Assembly: GCA_017544265.1 (NCBI GenBank)
Contig: JAFYEM010000023.1
Span: forward strand, 188 to 64,187
DNA length: 64,000 nt
Direction of reading: 5' to 3'
Origin: Bacteroidales bacterium
GTDB taxonomy: Bacteria > Bacteroidota > Bacteroidia > Bacteroidales > UBA932
Shown: positions 1 to 31,916 of the stretch, piece after piece
Numbering within the stretch: the stretch's first letter is position 1
How the letters are laid out: each line of letters opens with the position of its first letter
Notes under the pieces: model-generated
Told to the model about the DNA's origin: nothing
The model's database searches: none
Seen by the model: only the letters and a program-made list of their open reading frames with translations
Program-made: the position numbers and the translations under genes

Positions 1-368
1 TTGTGGATGGCCACGGCATCCTTCCAGCCGGTGGCCTTCAGGACGAAGGAAAGGTTGTCCTCCACGCTGCGGTCCATCAGGAGCTGGAAATCCTGGAAGA
101 CGACGCCGATCTTGCGGCGCAGGTAGGGCACGTCTTTTGTCCGGATTTTCGACAGATCATATCCGCACACCTGCCCGGAGCCCTTGAGAAGCCGGTTCTC
201 GGCCGTGATGGTCCGGAAGATGGAGGTCTTTCCGCTGCCGACCTTGCCGATGATGTAAACGATCTGGCCGGGGTAGACTTGCATGTCGAGACCGTAAACC
301 ACGGTCACGTCCCCGCCGCGGATGTCCGCATCGGAGAAGGAAATGAGCGGTGCGCTGTTTTCTTCCAT
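1..368 (-). CDS. ftsE: Cell-division ABC ATPase FtsE (N-terminal part, runs off the window)
   Basis: Manual translation of the minus strand from ATG at 368: MEENSAPLISFSDADIRGGDVTVVYGLDMQVYPGQIVYIIGKVGSGKTSIF...YLRRKIGVVFQDFQLLMDRSVEDNLSFVLKATGW. It has a Walker A (GKVGSGKT) and the FtsE-typical LRRKIGVVFQDF. Not in the ORF track; the + strand ORF 3..392 is its shadow. Confidence 0.88.
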   Translation of the reverse strand, partial: MEENSAPLISFSDADIRGGDVTVVYGLDMQVYPGQIVYIIGKVGSGKTSIFRTITAENRLLKGSGQVCGYDLSKIRTKDVPYLRRKIGVVFQDFQLLMDRSVEDNLSFVLKATGWKDAVAIH

Positions 369-398
369 AAAGCAGGTGAAAAAGTTGGATGAACCCTA

Positions 399-406
399 CA
401 AATATA
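399..406 (-). promoter_or_regulatory. Bacteroidetes -7 promoter box (TATATTTG) for ftsE
   Basis: caaatata on + matches TAnnTTTG on -, 30 nt upstream of the ftsE ATG. Confidence 0.55.
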
Positions 407-451
407 GCGCAAAAATGAGTAAATTTGTCACTTTAGAAACAGAATAAGCTT

Positions 452-3424
452 ATGAGGTTGAAAACACTGCTGACCACGTTGCTCGCGCTGGCATGCTGCG
501 CCTCGGCGCCCGCGGCCGCCCAGGACGGCGACCTGCGCTCCTGGGAGCAGGCAATGCGCCTTTACGATGACGGGCTCTACGAACAGGCCCGCATTCGTTT
601 CGAGGAGATGCCCGACGGCCCGCTGAGCGACGGCTACGAAGTGCTCTGCGCCCTGAAGATGCAGACGTCCGACAGCGACGCCCTGCTCTCGGCCTACCGC
701 CTGCGCTATCCGTCGTCGCGCCTGAGCGGCGCGCTCCACCTGGAGCAGGCGCGCATCCTCTTCGACCGGAAGAAGTATCAGCAGGCCGCGACCGAGTTCT
801 CTTTTGTGAGCTCGGCGGACCTGGAGCAGGAAGAGCTTGCGGAATACATTTTCAAGTGCGGCTTCTGCGCCTTCAGCCTGGGCCAGTACGCCGAGGCGAC
901 CCGCTTCTTCACCCTGCTGGAGTCGCTCCCGCTGTCGGACTACACGGCTCCGGGGCGCTACTTCACCGGTATCATGCTGTATGAGAACAAGCAGTTCGCC
1001 GAGGCGGAGGCCAATTTCTGGCTGGCCTCGGCCGACAACCGCTTCCAGGCGCTGACGGATTTCTACATCGTCGACTGCGAATTCAACCAGAAGAACTATG
1101 ACTTCGTGATCCGCGAGGGCTCGCGCATCTACGAGAGCCTCCCGCCCGAGCGTCGCGAGCGCGTGGCGCGCGTGCTCTCGGAGTCGTACCTGATCAAAGG
1201 CGAAAAGGAGAAGGCCCGCGAGTACTACGACGACCTCTCGCACGAGGACATGAACCGCAAGGACTTCTTCTACGCGGGTACGGTGCTCTACTCCGTGAAC
1301 GATTATGCCGGCGCCATCGACAATTTCCTGAACATGGGCAGCCGGGCGGATTCGCTCGGCCAGGTGGCCAACTACCTGCTGGCCAACTCCTACATACGCA
1401 CGCACGACCAGGTGTCGGCGATGCAGGCCTTCTACGACGCCTCGAAGGTGGACTTCGACCCGGAAATCACGGAGGACGCCGCATTCAACTACGCCAAGCT
1501 GGCCTTCGACCTCAATAAGGACACCGCCGGCTTCGCCCGCTACATCGAGCGCTGGTCCACGAAGGCGCGCGGCGACATGATCTATGGCTACATGGCCCTG
1601 GCGGCCCTGGTGGACAAGGACTACGCCGGCGCGGTGGCGGCCTACGACAATATCGACGAGCTGACGCCCGACATGCGGAACAACTACACCAAGGCCAACT
1701 TCCTGCGCGGCGAGCAGCTGTTCGCCAGCGGCTCGTACCGCGACGCGGCCCCGTTCTTCCGGGCCACGGCCTACTACGTCCCCCGCACGGACCGGCTCAA
1801 CCAGCTGTCGCGCTACTGGATGGGCGAGGCCTACTACCGTTCCGGGAATTACAAGGACGCCGGCGACGTGTTCACCGAGCTGCACAACGCCGCCGCGCTG
1901 GACGACCGCATCGAGGGTCGGCTGCTGCCGTACAACATCGGCTACAGCTACTTCAAGCGGGGAGAATACGCCGCTGCGGCCCGCTGGTTCGACAGCTACA
2001 TTGCCTCTGGCGACCCGACGGCGCGCGAGGACGCGATGAACCGCCGGGCGGACTGCGACTTCGGCCGCCGCGACTACAAGGCGGCCGTCAATTCCTACCA
2101 GAAGGTGATGACGGAATACTTCACGCCGGACAACATTTACCCGTACTACCAGCAGGCGGTGGCCTATGGCCTGGCGGGCGACAAGCGCCGCAAGGTGTCC
2201 ACGCTCCTGCATGTCGAGGACGCCACCCCCGGCGTCCCCCTCTACGAGGAGGCGCTCTACGAACTGGGCCGCGCGCAGATGGACCAGAAGGACAACAACG
2301 ACGCGGTCCGCACCTTCACCCGGCTGCGTCACAATACCAAGGACAATACCTGGGTGGCGCGGGCGATGATCGGCCTGGGTATGGTGTACCGCAACATGTC
2401 CGAATATGACGCGGCGCTGGAATACAACAAGGAAGTCGTCCGCCTGATGCCGAACAGCGACTACGCCGGCGAGGCGATGGCGGCGATCGAGTCCATTTAC
2501 ACTGCCCGGCGCCAGCCGGAGAAGTTCCTCGAATACGTGGAGCAGAATTCCCTCGCGCAGGGACGCAGCGACGCCGACCGCGAGAAGATGTATTTCAACA
2601 CCGCCGAGCAGCTCTACCTGGCCGGTAACCATCAGCAGTCTGCGGCCACGCTGCGCAAGTACCTGGAAGAGTATCCGGGCGGCGCCGACCGGCTGCTGGC
2701 GGAGTTCTACCTGGCCGAGTGCTACAACGCCCTCGGCGAGAAGGAGCAGGCCGTCAGCCACTACGCCGCCGCGACCGCGGGCGAGTCCGTCTATTCCTTC
2801 TCCGAGATGGCGCGCCTGCGCTATGCTGAGCTCTCGTACGGGCTGGAGCGCTATCAGGACGCCTTCAAGGGCTATCAGGAGCTGCTCGCCACCGCGCGGA
2901 TGGATGCCAACAAGCAGACCGCCCGCGTGGGCATGATGCGCGCCGCCTACCGGAGCAAGGATTACGCGACGGCGATCTCCTCCGCCGACGAGGTGTCCGC
3001 CCTGCGGGGCCTCTCGGGCGATCTGAAGCGCGAGGCGTCCTTCGTCAAGGCGAAGTCCAGCCTGGCCACCTCGCAGCGCGAGCAGGCGATGCGCCTGTTC
3101 CGCGAACTCGCAAGCGATCCTTCGACGGCCATCGGGGCCGAATCCGAATACCTGGTGATCCAGAACCTCTACGACACCGGCAAGTTCGACGCCGTGGGCG
3201 ATGAGGTGTATGCCTTCTCGCAGAAGGCCGGCGACCAGTCCTACTGGCTGGCGCGGGCGTACCTGACGCTGGGCGACTCCTTCGCGGAGCGCGGGCAGTA
3301 CACCCAGGCCAAGGCCACCTTCGAGAGCATCCGGGACGGTTATGAACCCAACAAGGGCGCTGACGACATCCTCGACAGCGTCAAGATGAGACTGGAACGT
3401 CTCGCCACCCTAATGAATGAGTAA
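452..3424 (+). CDS. Large exported tetratricopeptide-repeat protein
   Basis: 990 aa with an N-terminal signal peptide and many TPR-like helical repeats (A..YY.G..YY..G.Y..A). Divergent from ftsE and overlapping an outer-membrane protein gene, a layout I recall as common in Bacteroidetes. Confidence 0.85.
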   Translation: MRLKTLLTTLLALACCASAPAAAQDGDLRSWEQAMRLYDDGLYEQARIRFEEMPDGPLSDGYEVLCALKMQTSDSDALLSAYRLRYPSSRLSGALHLEQARILFDRKKYQQAATEFSFVSSADLEQEELAEYIFKCGFCAFSLGQYAEATRFFTLLESLPLSDYTAPGRYFTGIMLYENKQFAEAEANFWLASADNRFQALTDFYIVDCEFNQKNYDFVIREGSRIYESLPPERRERVARVLSESYLIKGEKEKAREYYDDLSHEDMNRKDFFYAGTVLYSVNDYAGAIDNFLNMGSRADSLGQVANYLLANSYIRTHDQVSAMQAFYDASKVDFDPEITEDAAFNYAKLAFDLNKDTAGFARYIERWSTKARGDMIYGYMALAALVDKDYAGAVAAYDNIDELTPDMRNNYTKANFLRGEQLFASGSYRDAAPFFRATAYYVPRTDRLNQLSRYWMGEAYYRSGNYKDAGDVFTELHNAAALDDRIEGRLLPYNIGYSYFKRGEYAAAARWFDSYIASGDPTAREDAMNRRADCDFGRRDYKAAVNSYQKVMTEYFTPDNIYPYYQQAVAYGLAGDKRRKVSTLLHVEDATPGVPLYEEALYELGRAQMDQKDNNDAVRTFTRLRHNTKDNTWVARAMIGLGMVYRNMSEYDAALEYNKEVVRLMPNSDYAGEAMAAIESIYTARRQPEKFLEYVEQNSLAQGRSDADREKMYFNTAEQLYLAGNHQQSAATLRKYLEEYPGGADRLLAEFYLAECYNALGEKEQAVSHYAAATAGESVYSFSEMARLRYAELSYGLERYQDAFKGYQELLATARMDANKQTARVGMMRAAYRSKDYATAISSADEVSALRGLSGDLKREASFVKAKSSLATSQREQAMRLFRELASDPSTAIGAESEYLVIQNLYDTGKFDAVGDEVYAFSQKAGDQSYWLARAYLTLGDSFAERGQYTQAKATFESIRDGYEPNKGADDILDSVKMRLERLATLMNE

Positions 3425-5075
3425 GCGTATGAAAAGAATCAATCTGGCAATTGCCGTGATGGCGCTCTGCGCGCCGCTTTCCGCACAGAATATCAACCAG
3501 TCCGTGCAGGTGACCAACGATTACGTGTCCCGTTTCTCGGACTTCCAGAAGACGACCATGGGCCTGCAGGTACCGGACTCGCTGTACCGCTTCGACTATG
3601 CGTTCGACTATTCGGTCTTCGAGACGCCCTACAAGGGCTCCTACGAGTTCTCTCCGTACCGGATCGCCGTGACGCCCGAGGCGCGTCTGTATGACGGCAG
3701 CAAGTTCTTCCTGCGCGCCGGAGCGGGCTACTCCATCCATCCGCAGTTCGAGATGGCCTGGCAGATGTTCCAGTCCCAGGACTTTGCCATCGGCGTTTTC
3801 GCCGAAGCGGGGGGCTACGCGGGCAAGTACAGCCGCCGCGGGGTGGCCGACCCCTTCTCCGGCCATGACCTGAGCGGCCGCGTCGGCCTGGGCGGTCAGT
3901 ACCTGCGTCCGGCGACACGCCTGTCCTATCACTTCGGCTACGAAGGCATCTTTGCCGGCATGGACGGGGCGGATCCGTACTATCGCAGCGGCTTCAGCTC
4001 CGTCATCGCGGCGGGCCGCATCCAGTCGCGCGAGCGGCCGGGCAACCAGATGTTCTACGACATAGACGTGCAGTACCGTTACTCCAGCGATGAAGGTCGC
4101 GTGCAGGGGGAAGCCCGCGCTTCGGGTGAGAACAACCTCCGCGTGGCCCTGTCGGCCGGTCCGGTGCTTGCCAGCAAGTATCGCATCCTGGTGGACGGCA
4201 TCTTCGAGCTGGAATCGCTGCGTGGCGAGGATTTCCTTTCGGGTTCCGCCCTGCACGGCGAGATGTTCGGCGGCAGGCGGATGGCCTGTCTGGGGACCAT
4301 CAAGCCGCACGTGGACTTCCTGCTGGGGCCGGTCCGGCTGGACGCTGGCGTCCGGGTGGATTACACCAAGGGAACGGAGCAGGGCGCCTTCACCGTCTCG
4401 CCGGACGTGACGGCCCGGATGGCGCTGCTGGACGCGGATATGGAACTGACGGCCAGCGTGAGCGGCGGACAGTATATCCAGAGCCACTACGCCGTCAAGC
4501 AGATCAACCACTTCGCTTTCCTGAAGGGCTCTTCCGCCAAGATTTCCCGCGAGAAGATCCATATCCGTGCAGGTGTGCAGGGACACGTGCGGTCCCGCCT
4601 GCAGTATGAGATCCAGGCCGGCTATGTCTCCTACCTGGGCATGCCGCTCGCTTCGCTCTACGGTGTGGAGCCGGTGGACTACGATTCCGCTTACATCCAG
4701 GGCCGCTTCTCCTGGCGCGGCCCCCGGCTGGAGCTGGACCTCACGGGCGGATACAGCTACCTCCGCCTGTACGGCAACTCCGCCGCCTACGCCCCGCCCG
4801 CAGCCACGGGCGAGCTGCGCGGCCGTTACAACTGGGACAACCGCTTCTGGCTGGGTCTCTTCGTGGAGGCGCAGTCCTCGCGCCTGTCGCTGGCCGGAGA
4901 CCGCGTGTGGATGCCCTGGTTCGTGAATCCGGGCCTGACGCTCGAGTATCAGGCCAGCGCCCGCTGGAGCTTCTGGGCCGAGGCGGGCAACCTCCTGGGA
5001 ATGGCCATCGAGCGGGCCCCGGGCTTCGTTGAAAAAGGCCAGTACGGGACTGTTGGTTTCAGCCTCAAACTGTAG
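3417..5075 (+). CDS. Outer-membrane beta-barrel protein (TonB-receptor-like/putative porin); start may be ATG 3429
   Basis: Signal peptide, alternating aromatic beta-strand pattern, C-terminal GTVGFSLKL. Overlaps the TPR gene stop. Confidence 0.65.
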   Translation: MSKRMKRINLAIAVMALCAPLSAQNINQSVQVTNDYVSRFSDFQKTTMGLQVPDSLYRFDYAFDYSVFETPYKGSYEFSPYRIAVTPEARLYDGSKFFLRAGAGYSIHPQFEMAWQMFQSQDFAIGVFAEAGGYAGKYSRRGVADPFSGHDLSGRVGLGGQYLRPATRLSYHFGYEGIFAGMDGADPYYRSGFSSVIAAGRIQSRERPGNQMFYDIDVQYRYSSDEGRVQGEARASGENNLRVALSAGPVLASKYRILVDGIFELESLRGEDFLSGSALHGEMFGGRRMACLGTIKPHVDFLLGPVRLDAGVRVDYTKGTEQGAFTVSPDVTARMALLDADMELTASVSGGQYIQSHYAVKQINHFAFLKGSSAKISREKIHIRAGVQGHVRSRLQYEIQAGYVSYLGMPLASLYGVEPVDYDSAYIQGRFSWRGPRLELDLTGGYSYLRLYGNSAAYAPPAATGELRGRYNWDNRFWLGLFVEAQSSRLSLAGDRVWMPWFVNPGLTLEYQASARWSFWAEAGNLLGMAIERAPGFVEKGQYGTVGFSLKL

Positions 5076-5095
5076 GAAAATCCGGTAGAATTTCG

Positions 5096-5103
5096 TACCT
5101 TTG
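5096..5103 (+). promoter_or_regulatory. -7 promoter box (TACCTTTG) for gyrB
   Basis: Matches TAnnTTTG, 27 nt upstream of the ATG. Confidence 0.55.
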
Positions 5104-5124
5104 ACGGATTTTAAGAGATACTAA

Positions 5125-7140
<2,016 letters not shown>

Positions 7141-7145
7141 AAAGC

Positions 7146-7171
7146 TTGTCATCCCGAGCATAAGAGATCTC
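7146..7171 (+). repeat. Single REP-like element (TTGTCATCCCGAGC...AGAGATCTC)
   Basis: Shares the TGTCATCYCGA head and an AGAGA tail with the reverse complement of the repeats at 43567-43629. Lies in the gyrB 3' intergenic gap. Confidence 0.45.
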
Positions 7172-7188
7172 AAAACCAATAACAAACA

Positions 7189-8451
7189 ATGCTGGACATA
7201 TTTGACAGAATAGAAAGAGATTCCGGAGGCCCCATCGGACAGTATTTCGAGCAGGGATTCGGCTACTACATGTATCCCCGCCTGGAAGGAGAACTCGGCC
7301 CCCACATGACCTTCAACGGCATTCCGGTGCTGAACTGGAGCCTTAACAACTACCTCGGACTGGCGAACCATCCCGAAGTGCGCAAAGCGGACGCGGAAGC
7401 TGCCGCCCAGTGGGGCCTGGCCTATCCCATGGGCGCCCGCATGATGTCCGGGCATACCCGCTATCACGAAAAGCTCGAGAAAATCTTCGCCGGTTTCGAG
7501 AAGAAGGAAGACGCCTTCCTGTTCAACTTCGGTTACCAGGGAATAGTTTCCGCGATAGACGCCCTCACCGCCCGTCATGACGTGATTGTCTATGACGCCG
7601 AATGCCACGCCTGCCTTCTGGACGGCATCCGCCTGCACATAGGCAGCAAGTACAAATACCGTCACAACAACATGGCGGACTGCGAGAAAGTCCTCGCCAG
7701 AGCCTGTGCCGAGGCCGATGAATCCGGCGGCGGCGTGCTTCTGATAACCGAGGGTGTCTATGGCATGACCGGCGCTCTTGGAAAGCTGGACGGAATCGTG
7801 GCCCTGAAGAAAAAATATCCTTTCCGCATACTGATCGACGACGCCCACGGTTTCGGGCTTCTCGGCGAGCACGGCCGCGGCACCTCCGAGCATTTCGGGG
7901 TGATGGACGAAATAGACCTGTATATCGGCGCTTTCGCGAAGAGCATGGCCTCCATCGGCGGTTTCATAGCCGGGCCTCACTCCATCATAAACTATCTGAG
8001 GATGAACATGCGCTCGCAGATGTACGCCAAGAGCCTTCCCATGGCGCTCGTCCTGGGCAATATAAAGCGTATGGAAATTATAGATTCCCCGGAGGGCGAC
8101 GAGCTGCGCGCAAAGTGCTGGAAGATTACCCATGCCATCCAGGACGGCTTCAGGGCCGAGGGCTTTGATATCGGCGAGGCAGAGGCATGCGTTACGCCGG
8201 TTCATATCAAGGGCGGCGTCGCCCAGGCTACCAAGATGGCCAAGGACCTTCGTGAGAACTACCGCATCTTCTGCTCCATGGTGATTTATCCCGTCATTCC
8301 GAAGGGCATGATTATTTTCCGCATCGTTTCCACGGCGGCACACAGCATGGAGGATGTCGAGTACACCCTCAGGGCCTTCAAGGAGATTAAGGCCAAACTG
8401 GATGCAGGCGCCTATGACGGCGACGATATAGCCGAAATGAAGATAGAGTAA
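7189..8451 (+). CDS. sulA: PLP-dependent alpha-oxoamine synthase, probably cysteate acyl-ACP transferase (SulA/CapB-like, sulfonolipid synthesis)
   Basis: SLNNYLGLANHP, DDAHGFG, PLP lysine in AFAK(251)S, plus RSQMYAK(281)SLP. These resemble my recollection of Alistipes SulA/Flavobacterium CFAT rather than BioF or Bacteroides serine palmitoyltransferase (FSKS). AOS family is certain; substrate is inferred. Confidence 0.7.
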   Translation: MLDIFDRIERDSGGPIGQYFEQGFGYYMYPRLEGELGPHMTFNGIPVLNWSLNNYLGLANHPEVRKADAEAAAQWGLAYPMGARMMSGHTRYHEKLEKIFAGFEKKEDAFLFNFGYQGIVSAIDALTARHDVIVYDAECHACLLDGIRLHIGSKYKYRHNNMADCEKVLARACAEADESGGGVLLITEGVYGMTGALGKLDGIVALKKKYPFRILIDDAHGFGLLGEHGRGTSEHFGVMDEIDLYIGAFAKSMASIGGFIAGPHSIINYLRMNMRSQMYAKSLPMALVLGNIKRMEIIDSPEGDELRAKCWKITHAIQDGFRAEGFDIGEAEACVTPVHIKGGVAQATKMAKDLRENYRIFCSMVIYPVIPKGMIIFRIVSTAAHSMEDVEYTLRAFKEIKAKLDAGAYDGDDIAEMKIE

Positions 8452-9258
8452 ATGGATTTTTTCAAGGATAAGGTCGTAATAGTCACAGGGGCGAGCAGCG
8501 GAATCGGGCTTGCTGCGGCGAGGCGTTTCGGCTCCGCCGGCGCGAAGGTCGTGATGGCTGCGCGTTCGCTGGATAAAATGCTGGACCTTGCTCCTTCGGT
8601 GGGGGAGGATGTGCTCTGCGTCAAGGCGGACGTGAGCGTCGAGTCGGATTGCCGCGAGATTATAGACCAGACTATCGCGCGCTGGGGCCGCATAGACATA
8701 CTTGTCAATAATGCGGGGCTGTCCATGAGGGCGATGGTGCGCGACATGGACCTTTCCGTCATCCGCCGTCTTATGGACGTAAATTTCTGGGGCACAGTTT
8801 ATTGCACTAAATATGCTCTGCCTCATCTGCTTGCGTCCAAAGGTCAGGTGGTGGGTGTCGTAAGTATCGCCGCTTACAGCGCACTGCCAGCCCGCAGCGG
8901 TTACAGCTCCTCCAAATATGCCGTCCGGGGCTTCCTGGACACCCTTCGCATCGAGCATCTTAAAGACGGTCTCGGGGTGCTTGTGTTCGCTCCGGGCTAC
9001 ACTTCCTCCAATGTCCGAAATGCCGCCCTGACTGCTGACGGTACGCCCCAGGGCGAGACTCCGCTGGAGGAGGGCAAACTGATGAGCGCCGAGGAGTGTG
9101 CGGACATTCTCGCACGAGCCCTTTCGAAACGCCGTTCAGAGGTGATTCTTACCCCTCTGGGGAAAGCTACTGTGTTCATGCACAGGCTCTTCCCCCGCCT
9201 GACAGACAGGATGACCTACAGTTTTATCGCCAAAGAGAAAGACAGTCCCTTCAAATGA
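8452..9258 (+). CDS. Short-chain dehydrogenase/reductase, candidate 3-dehydrocapnine reductase
   Basis: TGASSGIG, NNAG and YSSSK catalytic motifs. Starts immediately after the AOS stop codon. Confidence 0.85.
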   Translation: MDFFKDKVVIVTGASSGIGLAAARRFGSAGAKVVMAARSLDKMLDLAPSVGEDVLCVKADVSVESDCREIIDQTIARWGRIDILVNNAGLSMRAMVRDMDLSVIRRLMDVNFWGTVYCTKYALPHLLASKGQVVGVVSIAAYSALPARSGYSSSKYAVRGFLDTLRIEHLKDGLGVLVFAPGYTSSNVRNAALTADGTPQGETPLEEGKLMSAEECADILARALSKRRSEVILTPLGKATVFMHRLFPRLTDRMTYSFIAKEKDSPFK

Positions 9259-11291
9259 AACCTCCGAAAATACGCCGCACTTTCATTCCGCTGATAATCG
9301 TTTTCGTCATCCTTTCGCTGATTATGCCCAGGACGGCGAAGTTTGGTTATGACTACCGCAAAGGCTCTCCCTGGCCCTACGAAACCCTGATTTCCCAGTT
9401 CGATTTTCCTCTTCTGAAGACTGAAGAAGAGATGCTCCAGGAGATGGAACAGCGCTCGGAGCGGGTCATTCCCTATTTCCGTTTCAGCGAGGAGGTGGTG
9501 AATACGGTTCAGAAAAATCTTTCCGCCCTGGATCTCAGCGACTATCCTTCGGTGAAGCAGGCCGCTGCCCTGAAGATTTCGGAGATATACTCCCGAGGAG
9601 TTATTTCAGATTCAAAGCTGAAGCTGGACAAAGGCTCTGAAGCGGTTTCCACCGAAGTCCTCTATATCCAGAAAAACAAACGCGTATCCAAACATCCCTA
9701 TTCCGAGGTCTATAAGGTCTCGGATGCCAGGGAAAAACTCTCGGCAGACCTTTCCCGGCAGTTTTCGTCAGTGAATGTGGATTCGCTGCTGAAAAAGAGG
9801 GGAGTGCCGGACATAATAGTCCCGAACCTCATTTTCGACAAGTCGATGACCGAACTCAGTTTCGCGGAGTTCTCAGACCAGGTGTCACCCACTTCCGGCT
9901 ACATCAGCGCGGACCGGAAGATCGTCTCCAAAGGGGAGATCGTAACTCCGGAGATAGCCCAGATGCTGGATTCCTATAAGGCTGAATACAACAAAGTCTT
10001 CGGCTACGACGGCCCGAGAATACTCCTGTACATAGGAAATGTGCTTATGGCCCTGGCTCTGGTGGTGATACTCTACTTCTGCATTTTCTTCACCAATCCC
10101 AACATATTCCGCGACTGGAACCGATATCTCTACCTGCTGACCATTTTCCTGCTTTCCAGCGTCGCGGCCTTCACATTTGAGAAAATAAATCCGGACCTTC
10201 TGTATCTGGTGCCCTTCTCGGTATTCGCCCTCTATCTGATGGCCTTCTTCTCCACCAGGGTAGTTATACCGGTCTATATCCTGTCGTTGCTGCCGCTGCT
10301 GATTTTCTCCTCCGGCGGGGCCGAGCTTTTCGTCATTTACCTGATCGGCGGAGTCATATCCCTCAGCTCCTTCAAGTCCTTCGGCAGGGGTTGGCTGCAG
10401 TTCGTCCATGCACTTATCGTTTTCCTCGTGCAGATCGTGGTCTATTCGGCCTTCCGCTTCATAGACGCCGGCTCCGCCAGCGTACTGCGTCCGGCGGTAT
10501 TCCTTTTCCTGGGGTCTATGCTGTCGGTGGCCGCCTATCCGCTGATTTATCTCTTCGAGAAGATTTTCAACCTGGTGTCCACTACGCGCCTCAGGGAGCT
10601 TGCGGACACCAACAACCGTCTTCTCCAGCAGCTTTCTGCCAAGGCTCCCGGAACCTTCCAGCACTGCCTCCAGGTCATGAACATGGCCGATGCAGCTGCC
10701 CGTTCGCTGGATGCCAATGTGCCCCTTATACGCGCAGGAGCCCTTTATCACGATCTCGGAAAGATGAAGAATCCGCTCTGTTTCATTGAGAATGAATCCA
10801 CCAATCCGGGAGCAGAGGGCTATCATTCCAGCCTTACTCCAAGGGAAAGCGCCCGCGACATTATCCGTCACGTGCCTGACGGAATCGAGATTGCCAGGGC
10901 GGAAGGCCTTCCCCAGGTGATTCAGGATTTCATTCTCACTCATCACGGCACAACCTGTACCAAGTACTTTTATACCAAATACCTGAATGAAGGCGGAGAT
11001 CCTGCCGAGACCTCGGATTTCTTCTATCCCGGCCGCAAGCCCACCTCCAAGGAGCAGATAATACTCATGGTCTGCGATTCTGTCGAGGCGGCTTCCCGTA
11101 CCCTCAAGAGTTACACTCCGGAGGCCTTCGACAAGTTCGTCGAAGATATAGTCGCCGGCAAGATGGAAGAAGGCCAGTTCGAGAATGCTGATATATCCAT
11201 ACGCGAAATCACCACACTCAAGAGTGTGCTCAAGACCTATCTCTCCCAGATTTATCATGAGAGGGTAGAATACCCCCATCCGAAAAATTAA
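9255..11291 (+). CDS. 7TM-HD membrane phosphohydrolase (PgpH-like)
   Basis: Real start MKPPK at 9255 (ATGA overlap with the SDR stop). N-terminal TM, extracellular domain, about 7 TM helices, then PGTFQH...LYHDLGK...HHGT...DSVEAA. Confidence 0.88.
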   Translation: MKPPKIRRTFIPLIIVFVILSLIMPRTAKFGYDYRKGSPWPYETLISQFDFPLLKTEEEMLQEMEQRSERVIPYFRFSEEVVNTVQKNLSALDLSDYPSVKQAAALKISEIYSRGVISDSKLKLDKGSEAVSTEVLYIQKNKRVSKHPYSEVYKVSDAREKLSADLSRQFSSVNVDSLLKKRGVPDIIVPNLIFDKSMTELSFAEFSDQVSPTSGYISADRKIVSKGEIVTPEIAQMLDSYKAEYNKVFGYDGPRILLYIGNVLMALALVVILYFCIFFTNPNIFRDWNRYLYLLTIFLLSSVAAFTFEKINPDLLYLVPFSVFALYLMAFFSTRVVIPVYILSLLPLLIFSSGGAELFVIYLIGGVISLSSFKSFGRGWLQFVHALIVFLVQIVVYSAFRFIDAGSASVLRPAVFLFLGSMLSVAAYPLIYLFEKIFNLVSTTRLRELADTNNRLLQQLSAKAPGTFQHCLQVMNMADAAARSLDANVPLIRAGALYHDLGKMKNPLCFIENESTNPGAEGYHSSLTPRESARDIIRHVPDGIEIARAEGLPQVIQDFILTHHGTTCTKYFYTKYLNEGGDPAETSDFFYPGRKPTSKEQIILMVCDSVEAASRTLKSYTPEAFDKFVEDIVAGKMEEGQFENADISIREITTLKSVLKTYLSQIYHERVEYPHPKN

Positions 11292-24314: not shown

Positions 24315-26390
24315 TTATAAGATAGCGGGGGATTGGGCTTTTTTAAATGTCATTTTGCTTCTTTCAGAAGGAACAACCTGATAGGTTGCGCGGACTTTGT
24401 GCTCAGGTTCAATCTCGACGCAGTTCTTTTTTGCATCGATACTCTTTGTGCCCTTTGCGAACTTCTTAAGGTTCTTGCTTGCAGAGGCTGCAGCGACTGC
24501 TTCATCCGGTGTCGGATAGATATCCGGATCTGCAAGAAGGATAGAGCGATACCCGGCAACTGTTGTGTACAGTTTATCTTCCTCTCCTTCTTCTTCAGCA
24601 AGCTGATATACATTGAACAAAATGCCGTCAAAGTTTATACCATAGTCGTTGCTATATTGTGGATAACCAACGAGTGCAATCAAACCTTCAGCAACATAAG
24701 CTCCGATAAGCGCGTAATTCAAGCTATAGAACGAATCTACGTTTGAAGCATAGAATTCAGGAATAAATCCAAGTCCGGCTAATTGCGGGATGGCAGACTC
24801 TTGATAGTCAGCTTTGTGAGAGTAGATTAATCCATTATATAAATCGAATACCACTGAATCGTCGTACTGATAGTATCCGCCTACGCCTAATCCGGGAAGT
24901 GAGTAGTAATCCTGACCCAAATCAGTGAATTGAGTGGAAAGTTGATACTCAACTTCGCTACCCCAGCCTTCCTTACCAAGAGCGATTGCGTAGACATCAT
25001 ATGTTTTATCTGTCAGCGCTTCAGCACTCAGCGGACCGACAAAATCAGCGGCTGAGTAGTCATCAATTGTGAGAGGATCCGGTTCGCCGACAAGGAAAGT
25101 CTCGTAGGCAATGAATTCAGGCTGGGCTTCGCCTTCAGCAAATGGAACCACAACTACAGTGTAGAAGGAGTTTGGTTCGAGAGCTATGCGGGCCTCGCCA
25201 CTGGCCTTGAGTTCAATAACTACCGGCCCGGCAGGCTCTTCACCTTCTTCTGATGCCCCGCCTTCTTCTGTTTCCTCATCACCTGAAGGAATGATTATAT
25301 CAATACCTGGTTGAGGATTCTTGCCCGGAACAAGAGCAACCTTTGCGGTTTCGACGTCCTTGCCAACAAAGTTGACATCAAACATGGCGAAGAGAGTGCC
25401 ATCAAGTTTGGAGTAAAGTCCAGTATACTCAACAGAAAGAGTGTAATCACCAAGAATGGCACCAGGAAGAGCGATACGGAATTTTCCGGCTTGATCGGCA
25501 TAATACAAACCATCATCATCCCCATAAATCATCTTCCCTTTAGGCATGGTGATTATTTTATCTTTAAGCCATCCGGTGTTTCCGGCCGTTTTTTGATCTT
25601 CAACAGTACTTCCATTTGCAATTGCATATCCGGCCAAGCTGCCTATACTCATCGATCCATATCCCCAGTCAAGAGAGTATGTAGTAATAGGAATCCAAAC
25701 GGCATCAGGATTTTCAGCGTGAACGTAGAAAAAGTTTTCCGCTTCTTTCGCAGGATCATATTTGGCGTCAGGATTATTGGCGTTATATGGAAACTTGTCA
25801 CCATAGGGGCTCTCTAATTTGTAGTAACCCTCATCGCTCATCCAAATATCCAGTTCATACTCAACTGCATCCATTTGATACATCGGGGCTACCATACTTT
25901 CGCGGAATTTCGCTTTTCCCTTGAGTTTAACCCATTCCTTTGGGGCTTCGGGACCAACAAAAACGATGCTCAGTCCATTTCCTCCGTAAGGTGTCGCACC
26001 CGCGGAAATTGCTATGTCAAGCCCGTATTTTTTAGACGGTTCAAACTTAGATGGATCCACAGGAATAACGATGTCGGCAGTTTCTGCTTCAGCATCAAAA
26101 ACAACTTCAATTTCCCCAATGCCTTCAGAATAAATGAGTTTTGTCGTATCAGTGATAGCAACTGTAGCAGTAACTGCCTCACTGGTGTTTCGACGATTAA
26201 GTTTGACAGTAATATCTTCCGACTCATCAGTCAAGGGAAAAGACTTAATCGTATTGGGATCGAAGAAGAATAATGGAGAGCTGGTATCTTCCGGCTCCGC
26301 CGGGACGTAGATGCCCTCCTTTACGGAGCAGGAATAAATCGCAGCACCGACAGTGAGGAAACTTACAATAAATATAATATATTTTTTCAT
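24315..26390 (-). CDS. Surface lipoprotein of left SusCD cassette (unknown function, Ig-like domains)
   Basis: Lipobox IYSC followed by an acidic export-signal-like stretch. Third gene of the left cassette, loosely paralogous to 37028..39211. Confidence 0.72.
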   Translation of the reverse strand: MKKYIIFIVSFLTVGAAIYSCSVKEGIYVPAEPEDTSSPLFFFDPNTIKSFPLTDESEDITVKLNRRNTSEAVTATVAITDTTKLIYSEGIGEIEVVFDAEAETADIVIPVDPSKFEPSKKYGLDIAISAGATPYGGNGLSIVFVGPEAPKEWVKLKGKAKFRESMVAPMYQMDAVEYELDIWMSDEGYYKLESPYGDKFPYNANNPDAKYDPAKEAENFFYVHAENPDAVWIPITTYSLDWGYGSMSIGSLAGYAIANGSTVEDQKTAGNTGWLKDKIITMPKGKMIYGDDDGLYYADQAGKFRIALPGAILGDYTLSVEYTGLYSKLDGTLFAMFDVNFVGKDVETAKVALVPGKNPQPGIDIIIPSGDEETEEGGASEEGEEPAGPVVIELKASGEARIALEPNSFYTVVVVPFAEGEAQPEFIAYETFLVGEPDPLTIDDYSAADFVGPLSAEALTDKTYDVYAIALGKEGWGSEVEYQLSTQFTDLGQDYYSLPGLGVGGYYQYDDSVVFDLYNGLIYSHKADYQESAIPQLAGLGFIPEFYASNVDSFYSLNYALIGAYVAEGLIALVGYPQYSNDYGINFDGILFNVYQLAEEEGEEDKLYTTVAGYRSILLADPDIYPTPDEAVAAASASKNLKKFAKGTKSIDAKKNCVEIEPEHKVRATYQVVPSERSKMTFKKAQSPAIL

Positions 26391-26407
26391 AATCTTCGAT
26401 TGTTAAA

Positions 26408-28024
26408 TTATGCATCTTCGTCTTCAACTGCTTTAGGAGAAGGAGCGGCAGGGTTGTTGTCAGCGTCGCTGAGCTTCTTGTTTGCGTTGATTTCAGTTTC
26501 AGGAATACGGTAAAGAAGAATGTCTGAACCCGCAGGAATATTAAATACTGCAGTTTTAGGGAATCCTGCACCACGGCGGTCAACATCTTTATTAAGACGC
26601 ATGATATCGAACCATGAAATACCTTCACCCCAGAATTCTATCCTTCTCTGACGGTATACCTCTTCTGCAATCTCATCACCGTCGGTTGAATCGAAAGCAT
26701 ATTCCGTATCACGGTATGTCTTAACAAAACCGGTGAGGGTTTCAAGGGCTGTCGCAGGATTGGTGTGTGCTTCGGCCTCAGCCTTAATCAGATAAAGTTC
26801 CTCAACACGGATAAGAGGGAGATCGTTAGCATTAACGGTTGTGCTGGCTTCATCCCTATAGGGAGCGAACTTGACTTGAGTGTATGGTTCATTACCAAAA
26901 TGGCTATCCATAACTTTGGCAAAATCCGCATTAAGAATATCAGAATGGCCTTCGGCATCCAACCACCATCCGTGTCGTGCATCAGAGATGGAAATCAAGC
27001 CGAACAGCTTCTTTGATATCAGGCGTCCACCTGAATACCAACCGTAACCGTAACTGAGGGATCCCATGTGGGAAGGAAAGTTGCAGATAGCAGACTCGAC
27101 AACATCATCCTTCTCATCAATGACATCTGCCCAAAGATAGGATGTCTCGTTAGCTGAATCCCAAAATAGCGGTCCTGATTTGAGTGTTGCAATCGAATAT
27201 GGGGCAAGCTTCTCTTTTTCAGCAAGAGCAAGAGCCTTGGCGGCATCTTCAGCTGCAGCTGTCCAGTTCTCGGTTGTCAGATTGAATCGGGCACGGAGAG
27301 CGTATGCGACAGCACTGTTGACATACCTTTTATCGATACGTTTATCGCCAGCAGCTTCTGCTTTTTCAAGAAAAGCAATAGCGTTGTCGATATCGGAGAA
27401 AATCTGCTCATAAACTTCTTTAACAGTGCTTCTGCCAATACCATCGTTAGCAGCCTCGAGAGCATTCTCGTCTGTTATAAGAGGAACGCATGGTGCATCC
27501 TGATGATCTGCATAATTAAACTGGAAAAGTTGAGCGAGTACCCAGTAGTCAAAAGCACGAACAGCGTATGCCTGTCCGATTAGTGACTGTACAGATACGA
27601 GAGGAGAATCCTTATCGTAGCTTTCAAGAAGTCCATTTGCTATCTTTAACTGCTTGTACATCCACATCCATATCATGTAAACCTCGTCACTGGAATAGTT
27701 GCGGCTTGAATACGTTACGGAAGCAGCAAACCAGTTATAACCAGAAGTGGAAGAAACCATATCGTAACCATTGCCGTCCAAAAGGAGCATGAGTCCGCCA
27801 TAACCGATATCGTTATGGTTACCGGAAATAGCACTCTGATATTCGTGGAACTGGAAATAGAGAGAATTGACGCCGGCGGTGGCTTTGGCGGGATCACGCT
27901 GGAGGACAGTCTCTTTCTGTTTAGTGGTGATAGTCGCACCGGAAGGTTCTGTCTCCAAAAAGTCGGAGCAACTGCTAAATACTAAAGCGGTCGCAAGGAG
28001 TGAAATGATATATCTTGTTTTCAT
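26408..28024 (-). CDS. SusD/RagB family lipoprotein (left cassette)
   Basis: Lipobox FSSC-SDFLETEP, GQAYAVRAFDYWVLAQLF, RVEELYLIKAEA, QRRIEFWGEGISWFDIMR. Confidence 0.93.
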   Translation of the reverse strand: MKTRYIISLLATALVFSSCSDFLETEPSGATITTKQKETVLQRDPAKATAGVNSLYFQFHEYQSAISGNHNDIGYGGLMLLLDGNGYDMVSSTSGYNWFAASVTYSSRNYSSDEVYMIWMWMYKQLKIANGLLESYDKDSPLVSVQSLIGQAYAVRAFDYWVLAQLFQFNYADHQDAPCVPLITDENALEAANDGIGRSTVKEVYEQIFSDIDNAIAFLEKAEAAGDKRIDKRYVNSAVAYALRARFNLTTENWTAAAEDAAKALALAEKEKLAPYSIATLKSGPLFWDSANETSYLWADVIDEKDDVVESAICNFPSHMGSLSYGYGWYSGGRLISKKLFGLISISDARHGWWLDAEGHSDILNADFAKVMDSHFGNEPYTQVKFAPYRDEASTTVNANDLPLIRVEELYLIKAEAEAHTNPATALETLTGFVKTYRDTEYAFDSTDGDEIAEEVYRQRRIEFWGEGISWFDIMRLNKDVDRRGAGFPKTAVFNIPAGSDILLYRIPETEINANKKLSDADNNPAAPSPKAVEDEDA

Positions 28025-28037
28025 ATCTCTCGGCGTT

Positions 28038-31000
28038 TTAGAAAGTTATATTAAGACCTCCTGATACGGTGCGGATAGGCGTGTATCTGGCTGTTGTTGA
28101 AGAAACATAGCTTTGGCGAGGGTCCAGGCCCTTGCGTGCAGATATAAGAGCTACATTGTCAGCTGTCACATAAATGCGGACCTTTGACAAGCCAATCTTA
28201 GAAATCCATTTCTCAGGAAGAGAATATCCGAAAGTAATATTATTCAGTGAGAGGTAATTAGAACTGGTCAAGAACCTTGTTGTAGTACCGTTGGAATACC
28301 TGTCCTCGCCGTTGATACGAGGAATATCGGTATCGGTATTCTCAGGAGTCCATGCTTTGCGGATATCTATGTGCCAGTTTTGACCCATGTAGTAGTAGTA
28401 TCCACTGTGCATCAGGCGCTGATAACCGGAGTCAAACATTTTTCCGCCGAGTTGATAGGACAGTGAAATGGATAAGTCAAATCCATACGCAGATACAGAA
28501 GTCCCAAAACCGCCGTAAACCTTAGGCATCAGGTTATCGGTGGCAATTTTGTGCTCTGAAGCTACCTGATAATCGGTGGTGGTGACGCGACTACCATCTT
28601 TGTCAGTTGTATAGAATAAAGGTGCGCCGGTCGCTTTGTCAACACCAGCCCATTCAACAAGGTAGAGTCTGTACATTGAGTAGCCTTCCTCAAGTATGGA
28701 GGTGCCGTCAATCATGCGATGACGTCCGTCTTCTACGGGAAGGTCGGGTGAAAGGCTGATAATCTTGTTATTGATGTTTGTGAAGTTGAAGAAAGCAGAC
28801 CAAACAACGTTGTTGGTGCGGATTATATCTCCTTTAAGTTCTAATTCGAGACCGTAGTTCTTCATTGAACCAATATTCATCGGAAGAGACGAATAACCAC
28901 TCACAAGAGGGGTCGGTTTGTAGTAGAGCATATTGTTAGACTGACGTCCGAAATACTCGATGGAACCTGAGAGACGGTCTTCAAATAAGGAGAAGTCTAA
29001 ACCAACATTGTAAGAGATTGATTTTTCCCATGTGAGGTCAGGATTACCCTTGAATGAAAGAACGCCGTCGGAGAAGAATCCGTTGGAACCGGAGAGTGAA
29101 TACTGGTCGAGGTAAGCATAGTTATTTCCGATCGCGTCATTGCCCTGCTGGCCGAAAGAGGCCTTAAGTTTGAGAAGGTTGACCCAGTTAACACTGTCCA
29201 TGAAACCTTCGGATGAGATCACCCACGCGGCAGATCCGTTGAGGAAGGCGCCCCAGCGGTTCTTGGGAGCGAATCTTGATGACGCATCCTCGCGGAAGCC
29301 GAAGCTCACCAGATACTTGTCGGCGAAACTATAGTTGGCCCTTGCAATGATTCCCAAAGTCGCGTATTTAGAAGCGCTGCCATAACCGTTCTTCTGGTCA
29401 ATTGCATTGCTGATATAGTATGACTGGGGGTCATAGAGATTTTGGCCCTGCGCACTCAGATTGGTGACTTTTAGCTGATAAGCATCAACACCGGCTGTAA
29501 AATCGAACTTGTGGATATTCTTGATAGCGAATTCGTAGTTTGCTATAAGCTGAAAGTCTAGGCCGCGGGTACGGGCAGAACTCTGGTATGCGGTTCCACC
29601 ATATTCTGCACTTTGGCCTATGTAAGCATTGCCGAGGTAGTTGTGACGGGTAAATTCAATGTCCATAGATGCATTGGCGTTGAGTGTGAAGCCCTTGAAT
29701 GGCTTTAACTCCGCGAAAGCAGAAAGTGCGAAAATATCCTTGCAGTATTCTTCCTTATTCCAGATGAGATCACCGACAGGATTGGCGATTTGCATGAATG
29801 TACGTTTTGAGGGAGATATTTTTCCGTCGCCGTAATCATAGACTTTTCGACCATTGTTCATCATAATATTTCCCTCTGCATCTCGGACATATACAGGATA
29901 TACCGGAGCGACAAAGTTTGCTATATAAAAAGCATTTACAGAAGACGTTGTGTTAGTCTGCTCGTCAGGATACTGGCTAAATGAGGAGCTATACGCAATG
30001 TTCCCGCCAATTTTGAGCCAATTCTTAACCTTATAGTCGGCCTTCAAACGGGCAGTCTCTCTGCGGAATCCTGAGTTAGAGATAACACCCTTGTCATCAA
30101 GGAAGCCGGCAGAAGCATAGAAACTGTAACGGTCGTTACCTGCCGTGGCGGAGACATTATATTCTTGACGAATTTTGTCCGCGAAGGTCTCCTTTGTCCA
30201 GTCATCGGGAGTGTAGTAGAAATTCCCATCACTGTAACCAAGGGTAGCTTTAGGGTTAATCTTACCATTTGCGCCAACGAGGTACTCGCCCTTTGGAACG
30301 GTAAAAATGGTGTAACCATAACCATAATCCCCACCGTTAAGGGCATATTTACTTGAAATACCTCCGTAGCTAACACCGTTGACCATTGCGGCAGCGGTGG
30401 CAGGGGAAGTACCGGCAGAAATAAGTTGATTATAAATCGCCAGGTAAGCAAGTTCTGTGTACTCGAAAGGAGAACTGAGTACGTCATAGTTCGTGACAGC
30501 TCGGCTATTGACACCAACACGTGCATCAATGTTGATTACCGCATGGCCGGCTTTACCTTTCTTGGTAGTAATGGTTACAACACCGTTCGCGCCACGGGCA
30601 CCATAGAGAGAGGTGGTAGCAGCATCTTTGGCAACCGTAATGGATTCGATGTCTTGAGCGTTGATGGAGGAAATGTCACCGTCGAAAGGGCGTCCATCCA
30701 CAACGTATAGCGGGTTGGCATCGGCATTGATGGAACCCACACCACGTACTCGGATAGTTGAACCCACGCCCGGCTGTCCGTTGTTACTGAGCACCTGAAC
30801 ACCTGCCATAGTTCCGGCCAGAGCATTGGTAACATTGGAGACCTGACGTTTTTCGATGGTCTCGGAATCCATCGAGCTCACTGAACCCGTGAACGTGCCT
30901 TTGGTGGAAGTACCATAGGCGGTAATAACGACCTCTTTCAAGAGTTTGGAGTCGGGTTCGAGGCTGATTAGGATGTCCGCCCCGGCATCCACTTCCTGAG

Positions 31001-31241
31001 ATTTCATTCCAATGAATGACACCAGAAGTTTTGCTCCGGAAGGAACATTGTTGAGGGTAAACGAACCGTCAACGTCTGAAACCGTTCCCTTGAGGTCTGT
31101 ACCCTGAACTGTAATGACTGCTCCGGCAACGGGCTCTCCGTCATCTGATGAACGAATCACGCCATGCACACGATTCTGTGCAAATGCGCTTATCGCCACT
31201 GCCAGAAAGCAGGTCAGGGTTAGCAAGATTTTTCTTGTCAT
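28038..31241 (-). CDS. SusC/RagA family TonB-dependent transporter (left cassette)
   Basis: LKEVVITAYG TonB box, PLYVVDG, KDAATTSLYGARGANGV, NPDLTWEK, C-terminal SGGLNITF. Confidence 0.96.
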   Translation of the reverse strand: MTRKILLTLTCFLAVAISAFAQNRVHGVIRSSDDGEPVAGAVITVQGTDLKGTVSDVDGSFTLNNVPSGAKLLVSFIGMKSQEVDAGADILISLEPDSKLLKEVVITAYGTSTKGTFTGSVSSMDSETIEKRQVSNVTNALAGTMAGVQVLSNNGQPGVGSTIRVRGVGSINADANPLYVVDGRPFDGDISSINAQDIESITVAKDAATTSLYGARGANGVVTITTKKGKAGHAVINIDARVGVNSRAVTNYDVLSSPFEYTELAYLAIYNQLISAGTSPATAAAMVNGVSYGGISSKYALNGGDYGYGYTIFTVPKGEYLVGANGKINPKATLGYSDGNFYYTPDDWTKETFADKIRQEYNVSATAGNDRYSFYASAGFLDDKGVISNSGFRRETARLKADYKVKNWLKIGGNIAYSSSFSQYPDEQTNTTSSVNAFYIANFVAPVYPVYVRDAEGNIMMNNGRKVYDYGDGKISPSKRTFMQIANPVGDLIWNKEEYCKDIFALSAFAELKPFKGFTLNANASMDIEFTRHNYLGNAYIGQSAEYGGTAYQSSARTRGLDFQLIANYEFAIKNIHKFDFTAGVDAYQLKVTNLSAQGQNLYDPQSYYISNAIDQKNGYGSASKYATLGIIARANYSFADKYLVSFGFREDASSRFAPKNRWGAFLNGSAAWVISSEGFMDSVNWVNLLKLKASFGQQGNDAIGNNYAYLDQYSLSGSNGFFSDGVLSFKGNPDLTWEKSISYNVGLDFSLFEDRLSGSIEYFGRQSNNMLYYKPTPLVSGYSSLPMNIGSMKNYGLELELKGDIIRTNNVVWSAFFNFTNINNKIISLSPDLPVEDGRHRMIDGTSILEEGYSMYRLYLVEWAGVDKATGAPLFYTTDKDGSRVTTTDYQVASEHKIATDNLMPKVYGGFGTSVSAYGFDLSISLSYQLGGKMFDSGYQRLMHSGYYYYMGQNWHIDIRKAWTPENTDTDIPRINGEDRYSNGTTTRFLTSSNYLSLNNITFGYSLPEKWISKIGLSKVRIYVTADNVALISARKGLDPRQSYVSSTTARYTPIRTVSGGLNITF

Positions 31242-31259
31242 AACAAAACGATTAGTTAA
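31230..31259. repeat. 30-bp perfect inverted repeat with 32166-32195 (shared 5'UTR + start codon of the two susC genes)
   Basis: ttttcttgtcataacaaaacgattagttaa is the reverse complement of ttaactaatcgttttgttatgacaagaaaa. A further 14-bp IR lies at 31266-31279 / 32151-32164. Confidence 0.95.
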
Positions 31260-31286
31260 GTTTAAAATAAATACACTACCAACCGG

Positions 31287-31312
31287 ATTAAGAAAACGTC
31301 CGTTTTCTTGTT
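31287..31312 (-). promoter_or_regulatory. Left serine-invertase crossover site (hix/gix/Mpi-like)
   Basis: attaagaaaacg-TC-cgttttcttgtt: 9-bp palindromic arms around an asymmetric dinucleotide (31299-31300). Contains AAACGTCCGT. Confidence 0.82.
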
Positions 31313-31916
31313 ACACATTGATAATGTCATTGATGAACCTCCTTACTGTTTGTCTGGACACCTTTAATTTTCGCGCTGCTTCGGAAATCGTCACGCCCGC
31401 CTCTATCATTTCTTTCAATTGCTGCCTTTTTGAGTAGAGCTTGTAGCACCGAGGAGATGATTTATGACCGGCGGGGCGTCCTAGTATAACGCCTTCCGCA
31501 CGCTTGCGTTGAAGTGCTTCTTTTGTTCTTTGGCTGATCAGATTTCGCTCTATTTCTGCAGACAACCCGAATGCAAAGGCAAGAACCTTGCTTTGGATAT
31601 CGTCGCCAAGACGATAGCCATCCTTTATAGTCCAAACCTTACAACCGCGTGACATACAGAAACTTAATACCTCCATAATCATAAAAAGGCTTCGTCCCAA
31701 TCGCGAAAGTTCTGTGCAAATCATAATGTCTCCTCTATGCAATTGCTGCAGAAGTCTTCCAAGACGGCGTTGCTTGTAGTTTTTTAGTCCACTGGTTGTT
31801 TCTTCAATCCAGAAATCGATTCTCAAGCCATTTGAAATACAGAATTGATTTATCTCAAATCTTTGATTATCAAGGGTCTGTTTATCGCTGCTGACCCGCA
31901 TGTAGCCATAAATCAT
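31311..31916 (-). CDS. mpi: Serine recombinase, Mpi-like DNA invertase
   Basis: MIYGYMRVSSDKQ (catalytic Ser), ELSRLGRS, YRLGDDIQSKVLAFAFGLSAEIERNLISQRTKEAL, LGRP and a C-terminal HTH. Closely matches my recollection of Bacteroides fragilis Mpi. Confidence 0.9.
   Translation of the reverse strand: MIYGYMRVSSDKQTLDNQRFEINQFCISNGLRIDFWIEETTSGLKNYKQRRLGRLLQQLHRGDIMICTELSRLGRSLFMIMEVLSFCMSRGCKVWTIKDGYRLGDDIQSKVLAFAFGLSAEIERNLISQRTKEALQRKRAEGVILGRPAGHKSSPRCYKLYSKRQQLKEMIEAGVTISEAARKLKVSRQTVRRFINDIINV

Follow-up and report, generated by a model that had tools for sequence, protein, structure and literature searches.

The locus described here raises the question of what two abutting genes, one for a pyridoxal 5'-phosphate (PLP)-dependent alpha-oxoamine synthase (AOS) and the other for a short-chain dehydrogenase/reductase (SDR), make for the bacterium that carries them. 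The genes lie in a 64,000-nucleotide stretch of Bacteroidales DNA (GenBank assembly GCA_017544265.1, contig JAFYEM010000023.1, positions 188 to 64,187 of the forward strand), which we call the window and whose coordinates are used throughout. It belongs to contig C2 of a 1.87-Mb metagenome-assembled genome (MAG) of 65 contigs, 90.5% complete and with 2.4% contamination. The first gene, sulA or cfat (7189–8451, plus strand), is an uninterrupted open reading frame (ORF) for a 420-residue AOS, predicted to be a cysteate acyl-ACP transferase (ACP, acyl carrier protein), or cysteate C-fatty acyltransferase (CFAT). Its TAA stop codon (8449–8451) abuts the ATG of the second gene (8452–9258, plus strand), which encodes a 268-residue classical SDR, probably a 3-ketocapnine (3-dehydrocapnine) reductase. 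We consider it likely, at a probability of about 0.78, that the pair encodes steps 2 and 3 of the pathway to capnine, the long-chain base of sulfonolipids, and the organism very likely makes these lipids.

Identity of the first protein

The 420-residue protein matches Aminotran_1_2 in Pfam, and its two best matches in the PDB are both cysteate acyltransferases, aligned over their full length. The first is SulA of Alistipes finegoldii (Alfi_1224; PDB 7u7h, entitled "7-keto-8-aminopelargonate synthetase-like enzyme"; PMC9304779), which scores 563.5 bits and has the same start. The second, at 543.3 bits, is CapB of Capnocytophaga ochracea, or CO-CFAT (PDB 28eh, "Cysteate-C-fatty acyltransferase", and 28FA; Pang, 2026, PMC13692747; Liu et al., 2022). 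The next matches, serine palmitoyltransferase (SPT; PDB 3a2b) and Kbl, reach 211 and 206 bits.

Translation of the ORFs bears out what the initial annotation of this DNA had read from the letters: an AOS enzyme with Lys251 (in AFAKS, from residue 248) and Lys281 (in QMYAKSLP, from residue 277), followed directly by an SDR. Lys251 aligns to the PLP lysine of both 7u7h and 28eh. That annotation had given the two lysines as those of A. finegoldii SulA, with PLP on Lys251 and a catalytically essential Lys281, in agreement with the published description, in which Asn53, His140, Lys251 and Arg376 are conserved and the single active-site difference is a lysine at position 281 in SulA and an alanine in SPT (Radka et al., 2022, PMC9304779). 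For CO-CFAT, the residues listed round the PLP-cysteate adduct include a cysteate pocket of F113-G114-Y115, C141, E187, A249 and T247 (Pang, 2026, PMC13692747). Of the residues named in these two studies, the window protein has N53, F114-G115-Y116, H140, C142, E188, D217, H220, A250, K251, K281 and R378. Those of the cysteate pocket sit at an offset of +1 from the CO-CFAT numbering. Relative to A. finegoldii SulA, the numbering is identical for Asn53, His140, Lys251 and Lys281, and Arg376 there corresponds to Arg378 here; the window protein has a two-residue insertion near residue 302. Phe278 of CO-CFAT is replaced by Tyr279, a tyrosine as in SulA.

To place these residues in the wider family, we compared, in one alignment, 30 SulA-like proteins drawn from 24 GTDB families, five true SPTs, four Kbl proteins and three other AOS enzymes. 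Lys281 is present in all 30 SulA-like proteins, in which C142, A250, Y116 and E188 are likewise invariant. A quick IQ-TREE maximum-likelihood tree of the 42 sequences, with support from the Shimodaira–Hasegawa-like approximate likelihood ratio test (SH-aLRT), placed the window protein in a SulA-like clade that has 99% support and sits on a long stem; the PDB scores of two clade members against 7u7h and 28eh anchor this clade. We therefore regard the first protein, with little doubt, as a predicted SulA/CapB-type cysteate acyltransferase, and on this point the initial annotation is upheld.

The adjoining dehydrogenase and its association with sulA

The second protein matches adh_short in Pfam at 164.6 bits. 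With TGASSGIG (residue 12), NNAG (86), Ser138 and Y151-x3-K155, its Rossmann motif and catalytic tetrad are intact, and it is therefore a classical SDR. The sequence VVMAARS follows its second beta-strand and contains an arginine which we take to be characteristic of classical SDRs that prefer NADP(H). The NCBIfam model NF004825 (PRK06181, "SDR family oxidoreductase") recognises the protein at 294 bits, over a cut-off of 215, and it is the only SDR of the PRK06181 type in the MAG, where the next SDR is 37% identical. The PDB holds no close solved structure (best match 126 bits), and homologue searches gave nothing but close relatives under the label "SDR family oxidoreductase" and, in the ESM Atlas, nothing but generic SDR clusters. 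By class and predicted pathway position, the protein can be likened to CapC of Ornithobacterium rhinotracheale (QAR30703.1; Liu et al., 2022) and to the 3-ketocapnine reductases (KCRs) validated in C. gleum and A. finegoldii, likewise NAD(P)H-type classical SDRs with Ser-Tyr-Lys acting after CFAT (PMC11211663); there is no PDB entry for CapC or these KCRs.

Of 80 related species-level genomes, 76 preserve the gene order gyrB-sulA-SDR; in one more, the 77th, the SDR begins at the end of a contig. Linkage of sulA and the SDR recurs in four families and in three arrangements. In f1, the family of the window itself (G006, G152), and in f124 (G124, G244), the SDR comes directly after sulA and on the same strand. 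In f11 (G011, G274), sulA and the SDR gene are neighbours and, judged from their coordinates, divergent (61% identity). In f90 (G090, G219), an SDR that scores 232.7 bits on PRK06181 is placed after a PALP gene.

The association extends across the order. We sampled 301 Bacteroidales genomes, spread evenly over families, and counted as SulA-like any protein with E ≤ 1e-119. Such a gene is present in 228 genomes (identity 56–75%) and absent from 73. The PRK06181 cut-off was exceeded in 209 of the 301: in 200 of the SulA-positive genomes and in nine of the SulA-negative ones. Five of these nine are at most 91% complete, and three of the five have SulA-positive congeners. G269, a member of the same genus that is 100% complete, lacks both SulA and a PRK06181 match. 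Among families with both states, seven contrasts are concordant; of the discordant ones, two are solid (G290, G121) and the other five come from genomes that are incomplete.

Linkage and co-occurrence together make the SDR a probable 3-ketocapnine reductase. Of the capnine gene pair that the initial annotation had proposed, the SulA half is thus carried by residues, clade and scores, and the assignment of the SDR as a CapC-type reductase by these two associations.

Several points weigh against the reading of the pair as capnine genes, and some of them speak for an alternative in which SulA is correctly identified, the substrate of the SDR is some other carbonyl compound, and one or several promiscuous SDRs encoded elsewhere reduce 3-ketocapnine. 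Three active reductases have been described in A. finegoldii and three in C. gleum, none of them clustered with cfat (Wu, 2024, PMC11211663), whereas the SDR here abuts sulA. Three close relatives of the window genome (L045, L058, L082) have sulA without the SDR, and the best PRK06181 scores in their genomes (129–213 bits) are all under the cut-off; at the one such locus inspected (L045:7265-9304), a homologue of the 7TM-HD gene that follows the SDR in the window comes directly after sulA. Hence the reductase can be replaced or is redundant. Among close relatives, the SDR is also less conserved (64–81% identity) than SulA (89–95%). No PRK06181 match over the cut-off occurs in 28 of the 228 SulA-positive genomes, and the co-occurrence was counted by hand from two tables, among relatives that are not phylogenetically independent.

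Two further points concern the transferase and the assembly. Thr247 of CO-CFAT, a threonine also in A. finegoldii SulA, is Ala248 in the window protein, the one exception to the published residues. Because 12 of the 30 members of the SulA-like clade share this alanine, and because the T247A mutant of CO-CFAT kept 19–48% of its activity (Pang, 2026, PMC13692747), we read Ala248 as a tolerated variant. The MAG is, moreover, incomplete and slightly contaminated, as given above, and its contig is most likely chimeric just upstream of sulA.

Against an unlinked reductase stand the abutting stop and start codons, the linkage in four families and three arrangements, the strong co-occurrence with its contrasts within a genus and within families, and the absence of a second PRK06181-type SDR from the MAG. 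We therefore consider this alternative unlikely and favour the abutting SDR as the probable 3-ketocapnine reductase.

Related synthases and the supply of cysteate

If the AOS enzyme were an SPT, the pair would instead make dihydrosphingosine for sphingolipids, as do BT_0870 and BT_0972 of Bacteroides. The Bacteroidota SPTs (BT_0870 type, NF047600, PDB 3A2B) indeed share the fold and PLP chemistry of the window protein, along with N53, H140, K251 and R378, and true SPTs are 35–36% identical to it. However, the window protein scores only 279.9 bits on NF047600, far below the cut-off of 640, whereas true SPTs of sister families score 684–707 bits; the named control genome over this cut-off is that of B. 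thetaiotaomicron. In the alignment, position 281 is alanine in all five true SPTs, and C142, A250, Y116 and E188, which are of the CFAT type, differ in all five; the first shell of the active site is remodelled. The SPTs form a clade of their own (98% SH-aLRT), and the cysteate synthase encoded in the MAG likewise speaks against an SPT. The control genome of B. thetaiotaomicron contains no PRK06181 match over the cut-off, and the SDR is therefore not of the BT_0972 kind. The sequence thus already contradicts an SPT, which we regard as highly improbable.

A loosely annotated BioF or Kbl, with a role in the metabolism of biotin or threonine, can be dismissed: although the corresponding models give 250–285 bits and the title of 7u7h names a 7-keto-8-aminopelargonate synthetase, the scores all fall below cut-offs of 426–493 (Kbl, 285.1 and 251.7 bits against 460 and 493; BioF, 263.1 against 426), position 281 is asparagine in 4/4 Kbl proteins and threonine in 3/3 members of the third AOS group, the clades are separate and strongly supported (Kbl, 100% SH-aLRT), and a bona fide Kbl is encoded on contig C65 (620 bits on TIGR01822). 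Curated hidden Markov model cut-offs, none of which the protein exceeds among the SPT, Kbl and BioF equivalogs of NCBIfam, hence agree with diagnostic residues and tree in ruling out all three identities. It had been expected that automated pipelines would label the gene bioF. The NCBI cluster of the protein, with 2651 members, instead bears the generic name "aminotransferase class I/II-fold", so that the function is under-annotated in public records, not mislabelled.

The favoured SulA assignment calls for a source of cysteate. As the initial annotation had stated, the 64-kb window contains no cysteate synthase. It had suggested looking for capA elsewhere in the genome, and a cysteate synthase was found there, on contig C14, although of another type: the gene is the only one in the MAG over the cut-off of the archaeal-type model TIGR03844 (445 bits against 324.9), and it matches PDB 9k3c ("Cysteate synthase") at 506 bits. 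It is flanked by genes for a Ca/Na antiporter and MscS and is unlinked to the other pathway genes. No Hdr-like sulfite module was found at this locus; CCG-domain genes occur on other contigs of the MAG. Capnocytophaga obtains its cysteate from CapA, described as no more than a distant relative of the archaeal-type enzyme, whereas Alistipes and Odoribacter have the archaeal type (PMC10191378), as here.

Apart from sulA, the MAG contains a single AOS gene, the kbl on contig C65; an SPT gene is absent, as it is from Alistipes. Sphingolipids and sulfonolipids have been reported to be mutually exclusive (PMC10191378), and a MAG with a cysteate route and without SPT fits this pattern.

From these genes we infer the following route. 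The archaeal-type cysteate synthase would make L-cysteate from phosphoserine and sulfite. SulA would bind PLP on Lys251 and form the external aldimine with cysteate; in a decarboxylative Claisen condensation that depends on PLP, it would join this to an acyl-ACP, whose chain is probably iso-branched C15, yielding 3-ketocapnine. Lys281 of the partner protomer would close the active site. The SDR would then use NAD(P)H to reduce the 3-keto group, yielding capnine, which some N-acyltransferase may turn into sulfobacin-type sulfonolipids of the outer membrane.

A different arrangement was seen in family f90, where sulA is followed by the PALP gene and then by the PRK06181-type SDR (L089:1495-2763 and L127:34-2292, from genomes G219 and G090). 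The PALP protein is a 419-residue, threonine-synthase-like (thrC-like) enzyme that scores only 120 bits on TIGR03844. Because G090 and G219 contain no cysteate synthase of the TIGR03844 type, the gene is a candidate for a cysteate synthase of a second type.

Host genome and implications for Bacteroidales lipids

The 80 closest public loci, whose SulA is 89–95% identical to that of the window, come from rumen, omasum and gut MAGs of cattle, buffalo, yak, goat, sheep, deer and reindeer, and are titled Bacteroidales or Candidatus Cryptobacteroides. The host is thus an uncultured rumen bacterium, Candidatus Cryptobacteroides-like, and these nearest loci rule out Alistipes. The SulA of f90, the nearest from another family, scores 577 bits against 7u7h, which was likewise counted against Alistipes as host. 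Unlike A. finegoldii, the MAG belongs to a Cryptobacteroides-like lineage, and its GTDB family differs from that of its closest sampled neighbours.

The first ~7 kb of the window are most likely an assembly chimera derived from a congener of higher GC content, joined at ~6870–7189. This reading draws on several lines of evidence. The GC content at third codon positions (GC3) is 0.85–0.90 over positions 1–7140, which hold genes for a TPR protein, a beta-barrel-like protein and gyrB, compared with 0.64–0.73 from sulA onward; round the 48-bp gyrB-sulA spacer (7141–7188), which lies inside or just after the compositional junction, it is 0.89 upstream and then 0.73 and 0.66 downstream. Positions 1–7140 hold the sole 5-kb stretch over 60% GC in the MAG, whereas relatives are compositionally uniform across the gyrB-sulA locus. 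A second TPR, beta-barrel and gyrB block opens contig C10 (C10:1-6400), its gyrB cut by the contig end (residues 1–581, 83% identical, GC3 0.75). Finally, the relatives whose GyrB is closest (96–97% identity) have a SulA that is among the most divergent (~90%). The composition of sulA and the SDR matches the bulk genome, and the two lineages share one gene order; the conclusion on the pair therefore stands.

Within the putatively chimeric part, a 552-residue protein (3417–5075, plus strand) has a signal-peptide-like N-terminus and beta-barrel-like repeats and matches neither Pfam nor NCBIfam. Downstream of the pair, the ATGA at the SDR stop overlaps the start of the 7TM-HD gene (9255–11291, plus strand), which encodes an HD membrane phosphohydrolase (7TMR-HDED / 7TM-7TMR_HD) and is followed by tig and then by clpP-like and clpX-like ORFs, both named by their look, without a family search. 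A scan from gyrB to the 7TM-HD gene revealed neither a consensus promoter nor a terminator, with counts no higher than in shuffled sequence; it used the sigma-70 consensus, from which Bacteroidota promoters differ, and its outcome therefore carries little weight. Further along, a low-GC island (24315–31916, minus strand; 0.45 versus 0.54) encodes a SusC-like TonB receptor, a SusD-like protein and a 691-residue protein without a Pfam match, with a gene for a serine recombinase (resolvase) at the margin. The island may be a polysaccharide-utilisation locus that is mobile or invertible.

Sulfonolipids are bioactive lipids of the outer membrane: they act on TLR4, are antagonists of the von Willebrand factor receptor and cause choanoflagellates to form rosettes. 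Most discussion of them has concerned Alistipes, Odoribacter and Flavobacteriia. The initial annotation had taken a similar view, naming Flavobacteriales, and the occurrence of SulA-like genes in the order-wide sample proves much wider. The find is in itself ordinary, because the pathway is known and common across Bacteroidales. The enzyme family, its chemistry and its broad distribution have already been published, the CFAT family having been termed widely distributed (Pang, 2026, PMC13692747), and the result is annotation-level knowledge. New here are the host lineage, the prevalence of ~76% in the sampled Bacteroidales and a candidate family of dedicated reductases; among the papers searched, we found none that ties Cryptobacteroides to sulfonolipids, nor, among the results listed for RC9, any that does so for that group.

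The published candidates for the reductase are scattered and redundant, and linkage and co-occurrence now nominate one SDR family for this step. A broader proposal, to which we give somewhat less than an even chance, is that the PRK06181-type SDR serves Bacteroidales as their dedicated and co-inherited 3-ketocapnine reductase and that sulfonolipids, not sphingolipids, are the default long-chain-base lipid in most families of the order, including the very abundant rumen Cryptobacteroides. If so, the abutment of sulA and the SDR seen in the window would be one example among several operon-like arrangements, each of them independent. The gene pair and the unlinked cysteate synthase predict sulfonolipids in a very common lineage of the rumen and hindgut, which would be of relevance to rumen lipidomics and to host-microbe signalling in livestock.

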